This document shows positions 3,390 to 61,120 of a DNA stretch of 64,000 nt, in pieces; positions within the stretch are counted from its first letter, which is position 1, and each line of letters opens with the position of its first letter. The notes under the pieces are model-generated. The model was not told the origin of the DNA, ran no database searches, and saw only the letters and a program-made list of their open reading frames with translations. The DNA comes from Escherichia coli. GTDB lineage: Bacteria; Pseudomonadota; Gammaproteobacteria; Enterobacterales; Enterobacteriaceae. Where the stretch lies: assembly GCF_003790525.1 (NCBI RefSeq), contig NZ_CP033635.1; one strand, 5' to 3'. A program made the translations under genes and the position numbers.

Positions 3390-5526
3390 GATGCTGGCTT
3401 ATCAGATTCAGTACGTCGCGCACGCTGTCGAGCATAGGCGTACCTGGACCATAAATCGCCGCCACGCCGCGCTCCTGCAGGAAGGCGTAATCCTGCGGCG
3501 GAATGACGCCACCCGCGACCACGCAGATATCTTCGCGTCCCCATTTTTTCAGCGCTTCGACCAGTTCCGGGATCAGCGTTTTATGACCGGCAGCCAGTGA
3601 AGATGCGCCCACTACGTGAACGTCGTTTTCTACTGCCAGGCGGGCGATCTCTTCAGGTGTAGAGAACATCGGGCTTAAATCTACGTCGAAACCGAGATCG
3701 GAATAGGCGCTGGCGATCACTTTCGCGCCGCGATCGTGCCCATCCTGGCCCATTTTGGCGATCAGAATGCGCGGACGACGACCATTGTCGGCAAGGAACT
3801 GCTCCGTTTGCGCAACAATGGCATCGAACTCGGTGGCCGATTTCTCAGACTGATGATAGCTTTGCGCAATCACGCCGGTAACACACTGGCTTGGCACCAG
3901 ATAACGGTCGAAAGCGGCTTCCAGCGCATCGGAAATTTCACCCAGGGTGGCGCGAACGCGAGCGGCATTAACAGCGGCAGCCAGCAGGTTTTCGTTATGC
4001 TGTGCGGCGTGAGTCAGGGCGTTCAACGTGGCGGTTACGGCAGCATCATCACGGGTGGCGCGAATGCGTTCCAGTGAAGCAATCTGCTCGTTACGCACCA
4101 TCACGTTGTCGATCTCAAGTACATCGGTTTCGTCTTCGTGATCCAGTTTGTACTTGTTGACACCAACGATGACACGCTTGCCCTGGTCGATCAGCGACTG
4201 TTCGCGCGCGGAGGCCTCTTCGATCATTCGTTTTGGCAGACCTGCTTCGATCGCTTTCGCCATGCCACCGGCTTCGTCGATCTGTTGGATAATGGCTCTG
4301 GCTTGTTTGACGATTTGATCGGTCAGCGATTCAACGTAATAGGATCCGGCCAGTGGATCGACGGTGCGGCAGAGTTCTGATTCTTCCTGAATGATGATCT
4401 GGGTATTGCGGGCAATGCGTGCTGAGAAATCGGTAGGCAAACCAAGCGCTTCATCAAAGGCGTTGGTATGCAGTGACTGAGTACCGCCCAGCGTTGCAGC
4501 CAGTGCTTCAATGGTGGTGCGGATAACGTTGTTATATGGATCCTGTTCAGTCAGGCTCCAGCCTGAGGTCTGGCAGTGGGTACGCAGCGCCAGTGATTTC
4601 GGATCCTGTGCGCCAAATCCACTGACCGCTTCGCTCCATAAATAACGTGCCGCACGCAACATGGCGACGTTCATAAACAGATCCATGCCAATGCCGAAGA
4701 AGAACGACAGGCGAGGAGCGAAGTCATCAATTTTCAGCCCGGCGGAGATTGCTGCTTTGATGTACTCAATCCCATCAGCGAGCGTAAATGCTACCTGTTG
4801 CACGCAGTTGGCACCCGCTTCACCCATATGGTAACCGCTGATACTGATGGTATTAAATCGCGGCATGTTGCCGGAACACCAGGCGATGATGTCTGCGATA
4901 ATACGCATTGACGGTTTTGGCGGGTAAATATAGGTGTTGCGGCAAAGATACTCTTTGAGGATATCGTTTTGAATGGTGCCGGTCAGTTTATCGGGTGTAA
5001 CACCTTGCTCTTCTGCGGCGACAATATAAAACGCCAGTACTGGTAGTACTGCGCCATTCATGGTCATCGAAACCGACATTTTATCCAGCGGGATCTGGTC
5101 GAACAGGACTTTCATATCTTCCACGGTGTCGATAGCAACGCCCGCTTTGCCGACGTCGCCCGCCACGCGCGGGTTATCGGAGTCGTAGCCTCGGTGGGTG
5201 GCAAGGTCAAACGCAACGGAAAGACCTTTTTGCCCGGCGGCCAGGTTACGGCGATAAAAAGCGTTGGACTCTTTTGCTGTTGAAAAACCAGCATACTGAC
5301 GGATGGTCCACGGTTGGGCGGTATACATAGTGGCACGCGGGCCACGAACGTAGGGGGGCAAACCAGGAAGGGTACCTGTCACCTCCAGATTATCGAGATC
5401 GGCTTCGGTATACAGCGGCTTGATGGCGATCCCTTCCGCGGTTTGCTGAACCAGCGAGTCGACAGTTTTCTCCCGACGGCTCAATTCCTTGTTGGCAAGC
5501 TGTTGCCACTCCTGCACGTTAGACAT
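3382..5526 (-). CDS. scpA: Methylmalonyl-CoA mutase (sleeping beauty mutase), B12-dependent
   Basis: ORF track 721 aa; trimmed to [14 protein letters not shown] (714 aa). The 3' end overlaps the argK start by 8 nt. Confidence 0.88.
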
Positions 5527-33940: not shown

Positions 33941-34375
33941 CAGTGTTTCTCCTTTCGCTCGCCAGAGTAAAAAGCAACCGTTTACGTTCATGAAACTGTC
34001 TAAACACATGCTCGTGGAGTGCCAGTTTTTGCGAGGAAGGGGAGTTAGAGACAGGAATTGCGGAGGCAATCACATAATCGTGGTTAAACCACGAAAATGA
34101 GAAGAGAACCTGACAATGGAATTATCTGTAATTTTCTCATATTGATATTTCATTAATCATTCTGGCATGTCGCACTCTCGCATTTAATCGTTTTTATCTG
34201 GATAGCATTCTTTTGATCGGCAATGTTGAAATAATGAAAGCTGCATAGATTGAGGGGCAATAATTTGAACTCAGTCGCAAAATTATAATTAAATCGGCCA
34301 TGCTACCTAATATATGCCCATTTATTGCATCGCGAAATTTGAGAAGACATAACTCATTAAATGAAAGGGATGCAA

Positions 34376-46148: not shown

Positions 46149-49100
46149 TTACACCTCCACGCGGCCCAGCAGATAATGATGATGCTGGTGGACATGGCTG
46201 ATGATACGGCACATATCGTTCAGCTCCGGTGGTACGTTGTTGAACTGACCTTCGCTGTCGATGTTTAACACCCAGCTTTGGTTATTCAGACGTACGCGTA
46301 CCCGGCAATCTTCCACAAGGAAGCCTGGGTTGCTGCTGTTATCAAAGTCTTGCGACAGGCTGAAGACGGTGATTTTGTCTTTGTACGGTTTACCGTTCCA
46401 CGGGCAGAATTGGGCGCAGTTGCCGCATTCGTTGCAGTAGGCATCGAGATGCAGCGTCTGGAAACGGTTCTGGAAGCCAGGAACCGCAATGGAGACGTTG
46501 GCGCGGTTCGGGCAGACATCCACACACTTGCTGCAAACGTAGTTACATTCAAGGCAGCGTGCGGCTTCCTGGGCGACAAACGCGTCACGATCGTCACTGT
46601 TCACCAGAGTGATAGAGATATCGCCTTTACGTTGATAGATTTCCGCCGGATTGACGTTGTTCCAGTATTTATCGTTCTGGTGGGAACGGATATTTTCCCG
46701 ACTCAGGATTGCATCGGTCGCCCGACGCGCGGTTCCGACAGCAGCGACAATGGAGGATGGTCCGCGCTGTACGTCGCCGATCATAAAGACGTCAGTCAGA
46801 CGCGTTTCGCCATTATGGTCGACGTCTGGCCAGCCGTTTTTGTCCAGCGGCACGCCCATTGCATTCAGGGCTTCAGTATCCTGCTGTTCACCAATGGCGG
46901 TGATCAGGCTGTCTACATGCAGCGTTACTGTTTCGTTGGTTTCAACCGGACGGCGACGACCTTTCTCATCAGGTTCGCCAAGCGACATAACGCGCAAGGT
47001 TAAGGTGCCATCAGCATCGAAACGTTCCGGATTATTCAGAAAACGGAACTCCACGCCGTCGTGCAACGCTTCTTCATACTCTTCGCGCCATGCTGGCATC
47101 TCTTGCAGTGAACGACGGTAAACGACCGTTGCTTTTTCTACGCCTGGAACGCGTAACGCCGCACGAGCGCAGTCCATTGCGGTGTTACCCGCCCCGACAA
47201 CGACCACATGTTTGCCCAGCTTGAGCGCGGTGCCCTTGTTGTATTCACGCAGGAAGGGGAGTGATTTCCAGACATTTTGGTTGTCGCCCGCCAGTTTCAC
47301 ACCGCTATTTTTATCGGTACCGGTGGCAATCAGAACATAGTGGAAGCCCTGATTTTTTAACTGTTCGACGGTCAGATCCGGTGAGCAGCCATACTCAAAT
47401 TTCACGCCGTGAGCGGCAACAAAATCGATATCGTGCTGAATTAACTCTGCAGGAATACGGAACTGAGGAATGATATTTTTCACCACGCCGCCCGCATTGG
47501 CTTCGCGTTCAAACAGCGTAACCGGATGGCCCGCTCTGGCAAGGAAGTAACCTGCTGCCAGACCCGCCGGACCTGCACCAATCACGGCAACCGGATGGCG
47601 TGAACCAGAACCGGCTGGTTTGTGCCAGCGTTGCTTATATTCATCCCAACCTTTTTCCAGCGCGACTTTTTTCAGTTCGCGGATATTCAGCGCACTGTCG
47701 TAATCCAGGCGAGTACAGTTGTATTGGCACTGGTGATCGCAAATATGACCGGTAATGGCGGGCAGGGCGTTTCGTTGATAGATGAGTTCCAGCGCGTCGG
47801 CATAGCGGTGTTCGCCAAGCAGACGGATGTATTCCGGAATATCTTGCTTGATAGCGCAGGCAGTAACACAGGGGGCAACGTAGCAATCGGTCAGCGGCAG
47901 GTCTTCAGCCACTTCAATACGCTCTTCTGGCTTCCAGTGTTTCTGGGTGTATTCCATGGTTAACGCATCTGCTGCCAGTCTGTTCAGTCGTTCGACGTCA
48001 ACATGGTCAAGTCCCCAGGCGTTGGAGCCTTCCAGCTCGCGCATGCAGGCACTTAAGCGCAGATAGCCGCCAGGTTTCAGCAGGTCGGTTGCCATAGTAA
48101 TAGGGCGAATACCAGTATCAAAAATATCGCGGATAGTCAGCTGACTGGCACCACCGGAATAAGAAATGGGCAGTTTGCCGTCAAAGGCGCGAGAGAGAAC
48201 TGCTGCAACGTTGATGGAGAGCGGGAACAGCGCACGGCCTGACATATACATCTCTTCACCAGGCAGTGCGCCTTTATTGTTGATGGTGCCGAGAGTGTTA
48301 GTCAGTTTTACGCCAAAGCCGAGTGATTTTTCTTTTGCCAGTGCCATCAGGCGTTCCAGCATTTCCAGCGCTTGCGTCAGCTTGAGGTCGTGATCAAATG
48401 ACTCTTCTTTTAAGCCTATGTAACCGAAACCGCAGACATCAAGGATCTCACGAACACGCGCGTACCCCAGTAAGGTCGGGTTGAGTTTCACAAAGGTATT
48501 GAGCCCTTTTTCTTCCAGCATGTAGCGGCAAATGGCTTCGATTTCATGCGGAGGACAGCCGTGCATGGTGGAGAGGGTAACACCTTGTACCATGCTGGTG
48601 GGGATGCGAGCGGGTAAGGCTTGCAAGCTTTCGCGTTTTTCCTGTAAGCCGTGGCGGGCTAAAAATGCCTCATCCTGGAGTAGCTTATTAAGTGCATCGC
48701 GGTATTGAGCGAATTTCGGATGGTCAGATGCGTCCATCATATTGTCGATGAACTGCTGCATCGGCGGTTGCTTAATACCTTCGAGGTTGTAACCGACGCT
48801 CATATTAAAGATGAACGATTTACCGGAATCAGAAGGCTGGAACATCGCTTCGAGAAGGTGCAGGGCAAACCAGGCTTTGAGGTATTCATCCCAGGCTTTA
48901 AGCAGGGTAAATTCGGTAGACCATTCGGTGTTAAAGCACTCGTCTTCGGCATCGATACAGGGCTTTTCCAGCTCCAGGCGGTCAAGAATTTGGACGGTTT
49001 TTAGTTCGATGAAGCGTCCGCCAGTCAGCCAGGAAGTGACAATATTTTGCGCGAGCTGCGTGTGCGGGCCAGCGGCAGGGCCGACGGGAGTGGCACAGGT

Positions 49101-49247
49101 TTCACCGAAGACGCTAACAGTTTTACCTTTTACAGGTGAGTAAAACTGTTGCTCGGGAATACCAAAGATTGAGCGTTGTTGTTGGTATTCATCAAATATG
49201 CGCGTCAAAAGTTCCTCAAACGGAATGGGACGCATAATATCCCCCAT
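46149..49247 (-). CDS. ygfK: Large Fe-S/FAD oxidoreductase YgfK (putative selenate reductase component)
   Basis: 1032-aa ORF MGDIMRPIPFEELLTRIFDEYQQ with SD ggagag; Cys clusters and GAGPAGL NAD/FAD fold. Confidence 0.88.
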   Translation of the reverse strand: MGDIMRPIPFEELLTRIFDEYQQQRSIFGIPEQQFYSPVKGKTVSVFGETCATPVGPAAGPHTQLAQNIVTSWLTGGRFIELKTVQILDRLELEKPCIDAEDECFNTEWSTEFTLLKAWDEYLKAWFALHLLEAMFQPSDSGKSFIFNMSVGYNLEGIKQPPMQQFIDNMMDASDHPKFAQYRDALNKLLQDEAFLARHGLQEKRESLQALPARIPTSMVQGVTLSTMHGCPPHEIEAICRYMLEEKGLNTFVKLNPTLLGYARVREILDVCGFGYIGLKEESFDHDLKLTQALEMLERLMALAKEKSLGFGVKLTNTLGTINNKGALPGEEMYMSGRALFPLSINVAAVLSRAFDGKLPISYSGGASQLTIRDIFDTGIRPITMATDLLKPGGYLRLSACMRELEGSNAWGLDHVDVERLNRLAADALTMEYTQKHWKPEERIEVAEDLPLTDCYVAPCVTACAIKQDIPEYIRLLGEHRYADALELIYQRNALPAITGHICDHQCQYNCTRLDYDSALNIRELKKVALEKGWDEYKQRWHKPAGSGSRHPVAVIGAGPAGLAAGYFLARAGHPVTLFEREANAGGVVKNIIPQFRIPAELIQHDIDFVAAHGVKFEYGCSPDLTVEQLKNQGFHYVLIATGTDKNSGVKLAGDNQNVWKSLPFLREYNKGTALKLGKHVVVVGAGNTAMDCARAALRVPGVEKATVVYRRSLQEMPAWREEYEEALHDGVEFRFLNNPERFDADGTLTLRVMSLGEPDEKGRRRPVETNETVTLHVDSLITAIGEQQDTEALNAMGVPLDKNGWPDVDHNGETRLTDVFMIGDVQRGPSSIVAAVGTARRATDAILSRENIRSHQNDKYWNNVNPAEIYQRKGDISITLVNSDDRDAFVAQEAARCLECNYVCSKCVDVCPNRANVSIAVPGFQNRFQTLHLDAYCNECGNCAQFCPWNGKPYKDKITVFSLSQDFDNSSNPGFLVEDCRVRVRLNNQSWVLNIDSEGQFNNVPPELNDMCRIISHVHQHHHYLLGRVEV

Positions 49248-49568
49248 AACCCTCTCCTTAGCTTATACAGATATCATTGAGTGACCGGTGTTGAGAAATC
49301 CGGTGGTTTAGGGGGATAGAGCAACAATCGCACCACTCTTGCCAGGTTTGGCGGGAAATATAAAAAAATGTGAGGCGGCTCGAAACTTAATGGCTTTTTG
49401 TGAATGAACTCACAGGTGCCAAATGAGAATTAAAATCACTCCTGAAAATTATTATTGCCAGCACATTTATCACTTTTTCTCTTTTCTCAAAATCAGTGAT
49501 TCCTTATCATTATGATAAAGAGTGCAGGAGGGATTAAATATTTGAACGCAATCGTTTAACTACGTTTT

Positions 49569-50147
49569 CTAAATTTCAGTATACCTTTTCTTCGCTGTAA
49601 TAAAGTCGTCAGGAGTATCAATATCTAAAATTATTTCTGCATTTTCTATTTCGACGGAATAATGTTCTCCCATAAGGAGTGCCTGACGCATATTGGTGAC
49701 ATTGGGTCGCTGGATTGCCTGCATCAGGCATGGTTTTGACACTAAAATCGGATGGCCGGGGATGCCATTATGGAGTGGCAGTATTGCGCCATCATTTCGT
49801 AACGACCAGATTTTTCTAAAAATATCGATGGTGAGGGTTGGCATATCTCCGTGGGTGAGAAAACAATGTTCTGTTTGCACCGCGGGTACTGCGGCCTTTA
49901 CTGATGTCAGTAAACCCTGCGCATAATCTGGGTTGTGGATAATAGTGATATTGCTCTGGTTCGCATAACGTTCGTGCAGTTCATTACCACGATAGCCGGT
50001 GACTAAAATAATTCGGCTACAAAACTGCAACGCATTTTTGATACTTGTATCAAGAATTGTTCCCTGTTGCCAGGGTAACATCATTTTCCATTGCCCCATT
50101 CTTGATGATAATCCTGCGGCGGTAATTATACAGTCGATGGCTGACAT
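49569..50147 (-). CDS. mocA: Molybdenum cofactor cytidylyltransferase (MobA-like NTP transferase)
   Basis: 192-aa ORF MSAIDCIITAAGLSSRMGQWKMMLPW. Confidence 0.85.
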   Translation of the reverse strand: MSAIDCIITAAGLSSRMGQWKMMLPWQQGTILDTSIKNALQFCSRIILVTGYRGNELHERYANQSNITIIHNPDYAQGLLTSVKAAVPAVQTEHCFLTHGDMPTLTIDIFRKIWSLRNDGAILPLHNGIPGHPILVSKPCLMQAIQRPNVTNMRQALLMGEHYSVEIENAEIILDIDTPDDFITAKKRYTEI

Positions 50148-56421: not shown

Positions 56422-57618
56422 TTAAGGTGCTACAGCGTGTTTGCCTTCCCAGACAACTTCGCGGTAGTGCTTCACGTCTGTGTCGCCTTCAGTGCTGATA
56501 ACCAGCACTACGGCATCTTTGTTCAGCGCCAGTTTTTCCATCAGGCTTTGACGTTGCGGGTGATAATGAACCGCTGCGAGAACGCCCAAACCGACAGCGC
56601 CGGATTCACCGGAGATGATGCGCGGGTCGTTGCCGTACGGATTACCCAGCACGCGCATACCTAATGCGGCAACGCTGTCCTGGCAGGAGATGAATTGGGT
56701 GGCGCAGTTACGTAGGATTTCCCAGCCCAGCGGGTTAGGTTCGCCACAGGCCAGGCCCGCCATGATGGTGGCCATATCACCGCCAACGTTGACGATGTCG
56801 CCTTTGACGCCGGAGCGATAAATACAGTCAGCTTTGTCAGGTTCAACAATAATGCTGTGCAGATTTTGCGGGCTGTAGACGTCGACCAGATAACCCAGCA
56901 CACCACCGGCCATTGCACCGACACCAGCTTGCAGCAGAACGTGTGTCGGGGTTACGCCCATTTCACGCATTTGCTCGACGGCTTCATCTGCCAGTGTTGC
57001 GTAGCCTTGCATGATCCAGGTTGGGATTTTGGTGTAACCTTCCCATGCTGTATCCTGTACCACTTCCCAGCCGTGCTGCTGCGCGTGTTGCATGGTCAGG
57101 CGAACGGTATCGTCATAGTTCATATCCGTGACGATGCACTCGGCACCGAGGTTCAGAATGGCGTCAACGCGTTCCTGAGCAGAACCTTTCGGCATGTAAA
57201 TCACCGCATTCTGTCCGAGTTGCTGTGCTGCCCATGCCACACCGCGCCCGTGGTTGCCGTCGGTGGTGGTCGCGAAGGTCATTTTTTCGCCGATGGCATT
57301 TTTCAGATGCTCAAATGACAGCGTTTCGATATCAAGATGATATTTTTCACACAATAATTGAGCGATGGCGTACGCACCGCCGAGCATTTTGAAGGCGTTC
57401 AGACCGAATCGTTTTGATTCGTCTTTGACGAGAATTTTCTTCACACCAAAAAGGTTTGCGAGATCGTCCAGCGCACAAAGCGGTGTTGGGCGATAACCAG
57501 CAATTTTCTGGTGGAACTGGCGCGCCAGTTTGGCCTGGCTTTGCGAAAAGAGCGGTGATGTTTCGCCGTTGAAAAATTTGTTATCGGCGATATCAATCTT
57601 CAATGAGAAAACGGACAT
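56422..57618 (-). CDS. ygeX: Diaminopropionate ammonia-lyase (PLP-dependent)
   Basis: 398-aa ORF MSVFSLKIDIADNKFFNGETSPLF. Confidence 0.88.
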   Translation of the reverse strand: MSVFSLKIDIADNKFFNGETSPLFSQSQAKLARQFHQKIAGYRPTPLCALDDLANLFGVKKILVKDESKRFGLNAFKMLGGAYAIAQLLCEKYHLDIETLSFEHLKNAIGEKMTFATTTDGNHGRGVAWAAQQLGQNAVIYMPKGSAQERVDAILNLGAECIVTDMNYDDTVRLTMQHAQQHGWEVVQDTAWEGYTKIPTWIMQGYATLADEAVEQMREMGVTPTHVLLQAGVGAMAGGVLGYLVDVYSPQNLHSIIVEPDKADCIYRSGVKGDIVNVGGDMATIMAGLACGEPNPLGWEILRNCATQFISCQDSVAALGMRVLGNPYGNDPRIISGESGAVGLGVLAAVHYHPQRQSLMEKLALNKDAVVLVISTEGDTDVKHYREVVWEGKHAVAP

Positions 57619-58866: not shown

Positions 58867-58957
58867 AAAGTCCCGGTAGTGGAATGACAGGCAAAGTGGT
58901 TTATTTCACTGTGACTTGCCAAAGTGATTGGTGTTTTCACAGCTATACCTAGGACTA

Positions 58958-58972
58958 ACAATAAGTGTGCCA
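58958..58972 (-). promoter_or_regulatory. Candidate sigma-54 (-24/-12) promoter for ygeW
   Basis: Minus strand reads TGGCAC-ACTTA-TTGT about 95 nt upstream of the ygeW ATG; -24 element is perfect, -12 has GT instead of GC. The adjacent divergent gene ygeV encodes a sigma-54 activator. Confidence 0.3.
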
Positions 58973-59341
58973 GAATTATCCACGCGGCTGCGAAAGGCTA
59001 ATTTGACGGATAATGTGTGGGGTTGATCACAAATTGATGCCAGCTTCCGGTTGTTTGTAAAATACGAAAACGTTTGGCTTTTTTTATCGCGTTATTTATT
59101 TGCTGCTAAGTATCAGAAATAAGATAAAGGGACAGGCGATCTCTCTTCAGTTTGATAAACTCACCGCCGTAATTCTCATATTGATATAGAAATGTGATAT
59201 CTCTTCCATAATTTCATTAGAAAGTGATAAAAATCTTATGTTTTTATCAAAGCCAATTTCGCCTGAGTTAATATCATCATGATCTATGAACCATCAACGT
59301 CTTCAATGATCGACTTTTAAGTAAGTCTGGAAGGTAAAGCT

Positions 59342-61120
59342 ATGGAGCTTGCTACTACGCAGTCAGTATTGATGCAAATTCAACCGACAATTCAGCGTTT
59401 TGCCAGAATGCTTGCCAGCGTTTTGCAGCTTGAGGTTGAGATCGTTGATGAAAACTTGTGTCGCGTCGCCGGAACGGGCGCGTATGGGAAGTTTCTTGGT
59501 CGCCAGTTGAGCGGCAACTCACGCCTGCTCCGCCACGTCCTGGAAACGAAAACTGAAAAAGTTGTGACACAGTCTCGCTTCGATCCCCTTTGTGAAGGTT
59601 GCGATAGTAAAGAAAATTGCCGCGAAAAAGCATTTCTGGGTACGCCTGTCATTTTACAGGATCGTTGTGTTGGAGTGATAAGTTTGATTGCCGTTACCCA
59701 CGAGCAACAAGAGCATATTAGTGATAATTTACGCGAATTTTCTGATTACGTTCGCCATATATCCACCATTTTTGTTTCTAAACTTCTGGAGGATCAGGGA
59801 CCAGGAGATAACATCAGTAAAATATTCGCGACCATGATCGATAATATGGATCAGGGCGTGTTAGTGGTTGATGCTGATAATCGTGTTCAATTTGTTAATC
59901 AGACAGCTTTAAAAACACTCGGTGTTGTACAAAATAATATTATTGGAAAACCAGTTCGTTTCAGACCATTAACATTTGAGAGTAATTTTACCCATGGTCA
60001 TATGCAACATATTGTTTCGTGGGATGATAAAAGTGAATTAATCATTGGTCAGTTGCATAACATCCAGGGCCGACAACTATTTTTAATGGCGTTTCACCAA
60101 TCGCATACCAGTTTTTCTGTAGCAAATGCACCTGATGAACCGCATATTGAACAATTGGTTGGCGAGTGCCGTGTTATGCGGCAATTAAAACGACTCATTA
60201 GCCGTATTGCACCCAGCCCATCCAGCGTTATGGTGGTTGGTGAAAGCGGCACAGGTAAAGAAGTCGTCGCCCGTGCAATCCATAAGTTGAGCGGAAGACG
60301 GAATAAACCCTTTATTGCTATCAACTGTGCCGCGATTCCGGAACAGCTTCTGGAGAGCGAACTGTTCGGTTATGTTAAAGGCGCATTTACTGGCGCTTCT
60401 GCCAACGGTAAAACAGGGTTGATTCAGGCGGCGAATACGGGCACGCTGTTTCTCGATGAAATTGGTGATATGCCATTAATGTTGCAGGCTAAATTACTGC
60501 GCGCTATTGAGGCGCGTGAAATTCTGCCGATTGGTGCCAGTAGCCCAATACAAGTCGACATCCGCATCATTTCTGCAACTAATCAGAATTTGGCCCAGTT
60601 CATTGCTGAAGGTAAATTCCGCGAAGATCTCTTCTACCGACTTAATGTTATCCCGATAACTCTGCCACCGCTGCGTGAACGTCAGGAAGATATTGAATTA
60701 CTGGTGCATTACTTTTTACATCTGCATACCCGTCGTCTGGGATCGGTTTATCCTGGCATTGCTCCTGATGTCGTCGAAATATTGCGTAAGCATCGTTGGC
60801 CCGGAAACCTGCGCGAGTTAAGCAATTTGATGGAATATCTGGTTAACGTGGTTCCTTCAGGTGAAGTTATCGACAGCACGCTATTGCCACCAAATCTGCT
60901 GAATAATGGCACAACGGAGCAAAGTGATGTAACAGAGGTCAGTGAGGCGCACCTGTCACTTGATGATGCGGGCGGCACGGCGCTGGAGGAGATGGAAAAG
61001 CAAATGATCCGCGAGGCGCTTTCACGTCATAACAGCAAGAAGGAAGTTGCTGATGAACTGGGCATCGGCATTGCTACGCTCTATCGCAAGATTAAGAAAT
61101 ATGAGTTGTTAAACACATAA
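59342..61120 (+). CDS. ygeV: Sigma-54-dependent transcriptional activator (sensory domain, AAA+ domain, Fis-type HTH)
   Basis: 592-aa ORF with Walker A GESGTGKE, GAFTGA sigma-54 contact motif and C-terminal HTH. Confidence 0.9.
   Translation: MELATTQSVLMQIQPTIQRFARMLASVLQLEVEIVDENLCRVAGTGAYGKFLGRQLSGNSRLLRHVLETKTEKVVTQSRFDPLCEGCDSKENCREKAFLGTPVILQDRCVGVISLIAVTHEQQEHISDNLREFSDYVRHISTIFVSKLLEDQGPGDNISKIFATMIDNMDQGVLVVDADNRVQFVNQTALKTLGVVQNNIIGKPVRFRPLTFESNFTHGHMQHIVSWDDKSELIIGQLHNIQGRQLFLMAFHQSHTSFSVANAPDEPHIEQLVGECRVMRQLKRLISRIAPSPSSVMVVGESGTGKEVVARAIHKLSGRRNKPFIAINCAAIPEQLLESELFGYVKGAFTGASANGKTGLIQAANTGTLFLDEIGDMPLMLQAKLLRAIEAREILPIGASSPIQVDIRIISATNQNLAQFIAEGKFREDLFYRLNVIPITLPPLRERQEDIELLVHYFLHLHTRRLGSVYPGIAPDVVEILRKHRWPGNLRELSNLMEYLVNVVPSGEVIDSTLLPPNLLNNGTTEQSDVTEVSEAHLSLDDAGGTALEEMEKQMIREALSRHNSKKEVADELGIGIATLYRKIKKYELLNT

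Follow-up and report, generated by a model that had tools for sequence, protein, structure and literature searches.

Organization of the sigma-54 promoter region upstream of ygfK in Escherichia coli and of a 30-codon open reading frame that overlaps it

The window analyzed here is a 64,000-nucleotide stretch of the Escherichia coli contig NZ_CP033635.1. On its minus strand, mocA (49569-50147, 192 aa) and ygfK (46149-49247, 1032 aa) are separated by a spacer of 321 bp (49248-49568), which extends exactly from the mocA stop codon (49569) to the ygfK ATG (49247) and contains the promoter that serves ygfK, while yqeC and yqeB, beyond mocA, are encoded on the plus strand. The spacer corresponds to positions 3015739-3016059 of K-12, relative to which the window is reversed, and its GC content is 38.3%, compared with 51.5% for the whole window. 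A first-pass annotation of this DNA had described an AT-rich region of 321 bp upstream of ygfK and suspected a regulatory function for it; both the description and the suspicion were borne out. The query region is 100% identical to that of E. coli WB61 and has a counterpart of at least 95% identity in 5171 of 5426 complete genomes. No annotated features, including the 30-codon open reading frame (ORF) discussed below, are found in the spacer in the RefSeq records of K-12 or WB61. In E. coli QL57EC (NZ_CP172108.1), the match is limited to the first 110 nt of the 521-nt query, and the ygfK upstream region of this strain appears to be interrupted or deleted.

For comparison, 80 ygfK loci were collected from other species, covering Escherichia, Citrobacter, Klebsiella, Kluyvera, Edwardsiella, Morganella, Serratia, Aeromonas, Photobacterium, and betaproteobacteria, and a phylogenetic footprint was derived from an alignment of 31 sequences from more than 20 genera. 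The footprint consists of discrete blocks with 80-100% identity, which are separated by sequence with 0-30% identity. The regulatory module formed by these blocks accompanies ygfK regardless of whether the gene upstream is mocA, yqeA, yqeC, or xdhD-like.

The sigma-54 promoter of ygfK, GTGGTGCGATTGTTGCT, is located at 49336-49320 on the minus strand, with the -24 GG at 49334-33 and the -12 GC at 49322-21. Its core, TGGTGCGATTGTTGCT (49335-49320, minus), lies 88 nt before the ygfK ATG, and the GG and GC are exactly 10 nt apart. A sigma-54 ChIP-seq peak, which shows occupancy in vivo, was assigned to ygfK by Bonocora et al., with the motif GTGGTGCGATTGTTGCT situated 62 nt from the gene (PMC4591121). 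The transcription start predicted from the motif, at approximately 49309, leaves a leader of 62 nt in agreement with this published distance, and the centers of all elements described below are counted from this predicted +1 in the ygfK sense. The -24/-12 element of ygfK is conserved together with the gene across several bacterial orders: TGG-N8-TTGC (TGGNNNGNNNNTTGCT) is found upstream of ygfK in 79 of the 80 loci, from Escherichia to Aeromonas, Photobacterium, and betaproteobacteria, and the distance from this core to the ygfK ATG is 73-145 nt in nearly all loci and 249 nt in one. The statement in the first-pass annotation that the spacer lacks a clean sigma-54 element is refuted by the canonical GG/GC spacing, the ChIP-seq motif, and the retention of the element in these 79 loci. 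A second sigma-54-like motif, TGGCAAGAGTGGTGCGA (49344-49328, minus), overlaps the conserved motif by 9 nt and is restricted to Escherichia and one close relative; as a candidate for the ygfK sigma-54 site, it was dropped in favor of the conserved and published site 9 nt downstream.

Within the leader, the Shine-Dalgarno (SD) region of ygfK, GCTAAGGAGAGGG (49250-49262, minus), is highly conserved. The leader also contains a weak inverted repeat, ACCGG-N11-CCGGT (49284-49304, minus), near the predicted mRNA 5' end, the pairing of which survives GC-to-AU changes across genera (GGGGCT/AGCCCC in Aeromonas). The fold of the 62-nt leader is no better than that of shuffled sequences (z = +1.05), and the fold of the leader alignment consists of a four-pair hairpin of about 0 kcal/mol. 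A scan of 48800-50000 against Rfam with E values up to 10 returned only one noise match, to a Tetrahymena snoRNA (16 bits, E = 9.8). A four-codon upstream ORF, ATGATATCTGTATAA (49263-49277, minus), directly precedes the ygfK SD in Escherichia and one Citrobacter.

Further upstream, two palindromic elements are positioned as expected for the enhancer of such a promoter. UAS1 (49505-49517, minus; TATCATAATGATA or TTATCATAATGATAA) is a perfect palindrome, TATCA-N3-TGATA, centered at approximately -202, and UAS2 (ACTGATTTTGAGA, 49485-49497, minus) is centered at approximately -182, 20 bp from UAS1, with only TTTTGAGAAA (49492-49483) being conserved. Among 69 distinct upstream sequences, UAS1 is near-invariant as T(A/C)TCA-WWN-TGATA and is followed 20-21 bp downstream by a TGA(G/T)A half-site. 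The same motif occurs at other promoters of the cluster (PMC4591121; YgeV iModulon, PMC10602906): the ygeV-ygeW region upstream of ygeW (58867-59341) contains the copies TCTCATATTGATA and TATCATCATGATC, the uacT-ygfT region upstream of ygfT (33941-34360) contains TCTCATATTGATA, and the region upstream of xdhA in K-12 (3893-4345 of the fetched locus) contains TATCACATTGATT and ACTCATATTGATA, which are 21 bp apart. In the combined 1669 bp upstream of the four sigma-54 promoters (ygfK, ygeW, ygfT, and xdhA), T(A/C)TCA-N3-TGA(T/G)A has six matches compared with 0.29 expected, and none of 2000 shuffles of the same regions reached six. The distance from the motif to the -24 element differs among these four YgeV-iModulon promoters, ranging from 111 to 312 nt, and block 3 and block 0, described below, are confined to ygfK.

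YgeV (IsrR), encoded at 59342-61120, possesses PAS, Sigma54_activat, and HTH_8 domains. ygfK is a member of the YgeV iModulon, and a ygeV mutant shows reduced expression of ygfT (PMC10602906); in addition, uric acid acts as an inducer of ygfK (bioRxiv 10.1101/2022.07.24.501321). UAS1 and UAS2 are probably YgeV sites because the motif is common to four YgeV-iModulon promoters, ygfT expression depends on YgeV, and YgeV has the domains of a sigma-54 activator. The searchable literature contains neither a published YgeV binding site nor YgeV ChIP-exo data, and a 2026 reporter-library preprint found no consistent footprints for YgeV-iModulon promoters under the conditions tested. In none of the 80 loci is a ygeV homolog found in the 2.5 kb preceding ygfK, and gene adjacency is therefore unusable for linking this activator to the site.

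The most conserved element of the region is block 3 (GAGTGATTTTAATTCTCATTT, 49421-49441, minus), which is 21 bp long and centered at approximately -122. The 64-kb window contains no second copy of it, no counterpart exists at ygeW, ygfT, or xdhA, and it matches none of the consensus sequences tried. Block 3 contains TGAT and TCTCA half-sites in everted order and could thus serve as an additional contact for YgeV or be bound by a different factor. Between block 3 and UAS2 lies a non-conserved spacer (49442-49482, minus) with a conservation of 0-3 of 10, which is 41 bp long here and 20 bp long in many genera. The remaining distances are nearly constant: block 3 is 93 or 94 nt from the sigma-54 TGG, and the two CRP-type sites described below are 79/80 and 49/50 nt from it. 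For UAS1, two distance classes are seen, 182/183 and 161/162 nt from the TGG, which differ by a 21-bp indel located between UAS2 and block 3; no other change in length is tolerated. The Morganella module is shifted as a unit by approximately 12 nt.

The interval between block 3 and the promoter core contains two CRP-type sites on the minus strand. Site 1 (TGTGAGTTCATTCACA, 49399-49414), centered at -97.5, has a TGTGA-N6-TCACA core with 0 mismatches, and it is the only perfect core of this kind in the 64-kb window; its position is fixed in most Enterobacterales and less so in Aeromonas. Site 2 (TTCGAGCCGCCTCACA, 49369-49384), centered at -67.5, has 2 mismatches and lies 30 bp from site 1. The genomic SELEX targets of CRP include ygfK, ygeV<>ygeW, and ygfT<>ygfU, at a resolution that does not reach the base-pair level (PMC3105977), and glucose represses the uric-acid pathway (bioRxiv 10.1101/2025.05.19.654654). 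The assignment to CRP was made because the core is perfect and unique, its position is fixed and conserved, ygfK is listed by SELEX, and glucose represses the pathway. It is plausible that CRP serves as a bending element and co-activator at ygfK, and the latter role is suggested by the repression that glucose exerts on the pathway. Whether CRP activates or inhibits at ygfK is nevertheless a guess, as the published effects of CRP at sigma-54 promoters, namely glnAp2, dctA, and Pu, are inhibitory (PMC3900584). At ygeW, a CRP-like sequence, TGTGATCAACCCCACA (59031-59016, minus-strand sense), is also present between the palindromic motif and the sigma-54 core.

At the far end of the spacer, block 0 (GTAGTTAAACGATTGCGTTCAAA or GTTAAACGATTGCGTTCAA, 49541-49563, minus) resembles a LacI/PurR operator; it is centered at approximately -244, 40-44 nt upstream of UAS1. 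It matches ACGCAAACGTTTGCGT weakly, at 12 of 16 positions, and is kept in the same orientation in 18 of the 80 ygfK loci, from seven genera. Consensus scans for IHF, FNR, NtrC, ArcA, ModE, and Nac yielded nothing, and the matches to Fur (13 of 19 positions, at UAS1) and PurR (12 of 16) were both weak.

The 30-codon ORF that drew attention to this spacer, with the peptide MRIKITPENYYCQHIYHFFSFLKISDSLSL, is located on the plus strand at 49423-49515 and spans block 3, the variable spacer, UAS2, and UAS1. The first-pass annotation gave the correct peptide and strand, with coordinates (49422-49514) that are one base off, and it correctly recorded AGGTG in front of the ORF; this SD-like pentamer is found at 49414-49418, 4 nt before the ATG, and abuts the CRP site. 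The ORF is antisense to and divergent from ygfK and lies 114-206 nt upstream of the predicted ygfK start. In 5000 dinucleotide-preserving shuffles of the 321-bp spacer, an ORF of at least 30 codons was present in 93% when ATG, GTG, and TTG were accepted as start codons and in 69% with ATG only, whereas an ATG-initiated ORF of at least 30 codons with a five-nucleotide SD occurred in 5.5%. The bare ORF is what chance leads one to expect, and together with the SD it is mildly unusual.

The conserved parts of the ORF coincide with the DNA blocks. The CAT in block 3 is the ATG of the ORF on the opposite strand, and the plus strand of block 3 reads ATG AGA ATT AAA ATC, so that the first residues, MRIKI, are the reverse complement of this block. 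The plus strand of UAS2 likewise reads TTT CTC AAA (FLK), the stop codon TGA lies inside UAS1, and the remaining codons, in the middle of the ORF, fall in non-conserved spacer. Across genera, the frame initiated at this ATG has 3, 7, 9, 12, 23, 25, 26, 29, 30, 48, or 59 codons, and the middle residues are unrelated between genera. The versions with 23 and 30 codons are frequent, and the difference between them corresponds to the 21-bp spacer class; since 21 bp amounts to two helical turns as well as seven codons, the preservation of the frame has a structural cause. All 10 E. coli strains sampled have the intact 30-codon ORF, as do E. whittamii and two other relatives. In Escherichia sp. E1V33, the YgfK of which is 98% identical, codon 13 is changed from CAG to TAG. 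AGGTG is not kept outside core Escherichia, being lost in the closest Citrobacter-labelled relative and replaced elsewhere by CAGTAG, CAGATA, CAAACG, and others.

The coding-type conservation that the first-pass annotation had proposed as a check on the ORF was absent with respect to length, SD, stops, and codon positions alike. With block 3 excluded, 36 of 56 distinct sequences lack stops in the ORF frame across the spacer, and the corresponding counts for the two alternative frames are 36 and 22; stop codons are not avoided in the ORF frame. An initial form of this test favored the ORF frame (32 of 56 open compared with 5 and 10) and was dropped as an artefact, because the conserved block 3 has fixed TGA and TAA codons in the two alternative frames. 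Among 14 Escherichia-group sequences, variable sites are distributed flatly over codon positions 1, 2, and 3 (8:7:11), and the changes within E. coli comprise three synonymous and three non-synonymous ones, all in the spacer. The peptides of the window and of K-12 are absent from a collection of 15 billion proteins; a one-residue variant is present there as an "uncharacterised protein" in two automatic annotations of Shigella sonnei only. No Pfam match was obtained for the peptide, and no mention of it was found in the searched literature. A promoter scan detected no sigma-70-like promoter upstream of the ORF: the sole sigma-70-like match on the plus strand has its -10 inside the ORF, downstream of the ATG, and the sole terminator-like match lies inside ygfK, with none in the spacer; neither kind of match exceeds what shuffles give. 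In short, the ORF has no conserved length, frame, or sequence, no synonymous excess, no conserved ribosome-binding site, and no sigma-70-like promoter upstream. It is almost certainly not a gene and most likely represents a chance by-product of conserved protein-binding DNA sites. Of the options left by the first-pass annotation, chance is backed by the shuffles and by the lack of coding-type conservation, a small protein finds no support for want of such conservation, and a leader is excluded: the ORF is encoded on the strand opposite to ygfK, and therefore cannot be a ygfK leader, and it lies upstream of the ygfK promoter.

Based on these observations, the spacer is very probably the enhancer-dependent sigma-54 promoter region of the uric-acid-degradation genes ygfK-ssnA-ygfM-xdhD, with the plus-strand ORF as a non-functional by-product. 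Core elements are present in the spacer, and they are accompanied by upstream sites and a cognate bacterial enhancer-binding protein (bEBP), YgeV, the binding of which is predicted. In the proposed mechanism, YgeV (IsrR), the PAS/AAA+/HTH_8 activator of the cluster, would bind to UAS1 (approximately -202) and to UAS2 (approximately -182), 20 bp downstream, and block 3 (approximately -122) might provide a further activator contact. cAMP-CRP may occupy the perfect core at -97.5 and, on the same face of the helix, the weaker one at -67.5, and the resulting bend in the DNA could allow the activator to reach the closed complex, by which expression would be tied to carbon status. The ORF would then arise on the opposite strand from the start codon in block 3, the TTT-CTC-AAA of UAS2, and the TGA of UAS1. 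Since the spacing between the sites is either fixed or altered by 21 bp, the frame tends to stay open without coding selection.

Another assignment of the palindromes has to be weighed against the YgeV-based one. The region could be a sigma-54 promoter in which the palindromes are operators of a different regulator, such as a repressor or a metal- or purine-responsive protein, with YgeV acting elsewhere, for example at block 3, and with CRP perhaps as an inhibitor, as at glnAp2. This is consistent with the searchable literature, which holds no experimental YgeV site, and with the negative sign of the known CRP effects on sigma-54 promoters; likewise, the most conserved element is block 3, which no consensus tried could match, UAS1 is partly Fur-box-like, and the LacI/PurR-like block 0 suggests that other factors probably act at the spacer. 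The assignment is nevertheless unlikely, given that the palindrome is present at all four YgeV-iModulon sigma-54 promoters at 111-312 nt from the -24 element, that the sites are paired at 20-21 bp at both ygfK and xdhA, and that block 3 is without a counterpart at the other three promoters. The glucose repression of the pathway also fits positive control by CRP.

The two remaining readings concern the products of the region rather than its regulators. The ORF could be a genuine young gene for a small protein found only in Escherichia, which would be translated from a plus-strand RNA antisense to the region upstream of ygfK. Its ATG and AGGTG have a usable spacing of 4 nt, in a combination reached by few shuffles, it is intact in the sampled E. 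coli strains, E. whittamii, and two other relatives, and two Shigella sonnei records include the peptide with one residue changed. Against this, the start, FLK, and stop coincide with DNA blocks conserved for other reasons, the frame is interrupted in E1V33, the closest Citrobacter-labelled relative has lost the SD, neither a codon-position bias nor in-frame stop avoidance is seen, the only promoter-like match on this strand has its -10 downstream of the ATG, and the ORF is unannotated in the K-12 and WB61 RefSeq records and its peptide is mentioned in no searched paper, all of which makes a small protein very improbable. Still more remote, to the point of being hardly credible, is the idea that the conserved blocks represent structured RNA (a leader, a riboswitch, or an sRNA on either strand) instead of DNA-binding sites. 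The leader inverted repeat that keeps its pairing through GC-to-AU changes would suit an RNA element, but the conserved blocks precede the promoter and would fall outside the ygfK transcript, no Rfam family was detected at E values up to 10 apart from the single noise match, the leader folds no better than shuffles, and the spacer has no terminator-like site. Moreover, the blocks are palindromes at fixed helical spacing, as expected of protein sites.

The preferred interpretation, an enhancer-dependent sigma-54 promoter region, places the spacer among well-studied systems. The textbook enhancer-dependent sigma-54 promoter is glnAp2 with its activator NtrC. Promoters of this type with tandem bEBP sites (PMC2709558, PMC3900584) share with ygfK the -24 GG/-12 GC core, palindromic activator sites approximately 100-200 bp upstream and about two helical turns apart, and a conserved helical phasing between enhancer and core; the cognate PAS/AAA+/HTH_8 activator of ygfK is encoded in the same cluster. 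In contrast to those promoters, the activator sites at ygfK are predicted ones, an IHF consensus is absent, and two CRP-type sites occupy the interval between enhancer and core. A further likeness is found with glnAp2, dctA, and Pu, at which CRP ties carbon status to an alternative-sigma regulon (PMC3900584). There, CRP inhibits, often without a good DNA site, whereas ygfK has a perfect and deeply conserved CRP core and a phased second site between the enhancer and the core.

Attenuation leaders offer another comparison. trpL and pheL encode leader peptides of E. coli, and the ORF in the ygfK spacer resembles such leaders in being short, preceded by an SD-like sequence, and situated in a long spacer in front of an operon. 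Unlike them, it is encoded on the wrong strand, precedes the promoter, and lacks an attenuator, and its length, sequence, and SD are not conserved. An attenuation leader peptide was rejected on account of the opposite strand, the position upstream of the start, and the lack of a terminator in the spacer.

The core site (by ChIP-seq), CRP binding (by SELEX), and regulon membership are already published, and the promoter is a standard enhancer-dependent sigma-54 promoter. The base-level layout of the enhancer, the candidate YgeV motif, and the 21-bp phasing rule are not found in the searchable literature and are refinements of a known kind. More tentatively, and with the balance somewhat against it, the region could exemplify a new and deeply conserved enhancer design of the gut uric-acid regulon, in which YgeV/IsrR would act at T(A/C)TCA-N3-TGA(T/G)A, the two phased CRP sites (-97.5 and -67.5) would replace IHF as the bending element and also co-activate, and the spacer would change in 21-bp steps only. 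If this were true, CRP would co-activate a sigma-54 promoter, reversing the inhibition for which it is known at promoters of this type.

For annotation, the 30-codon ORF should not be added as a gene. The case also indicates that helically phased, conserved binding sites can imitate a conserved ORF, with start, internal motif, and stop all kept and with an indel whose length is divisible by three. In the anaerobic breakdown of uric acid, a pathway that is of interest for gout, ygfK initiates the ring-reduction step. The conserved sites listed above could explain the glucose repression that strain engineers now bypass by promoter replacement, and they are exact targets for footprinting and reporter mutagenesis. 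A perfect TATCAAGATGATA also occurs at 57330-57342 inside the ygeX coding sequence, where it may be due to chance or represent an internal site.
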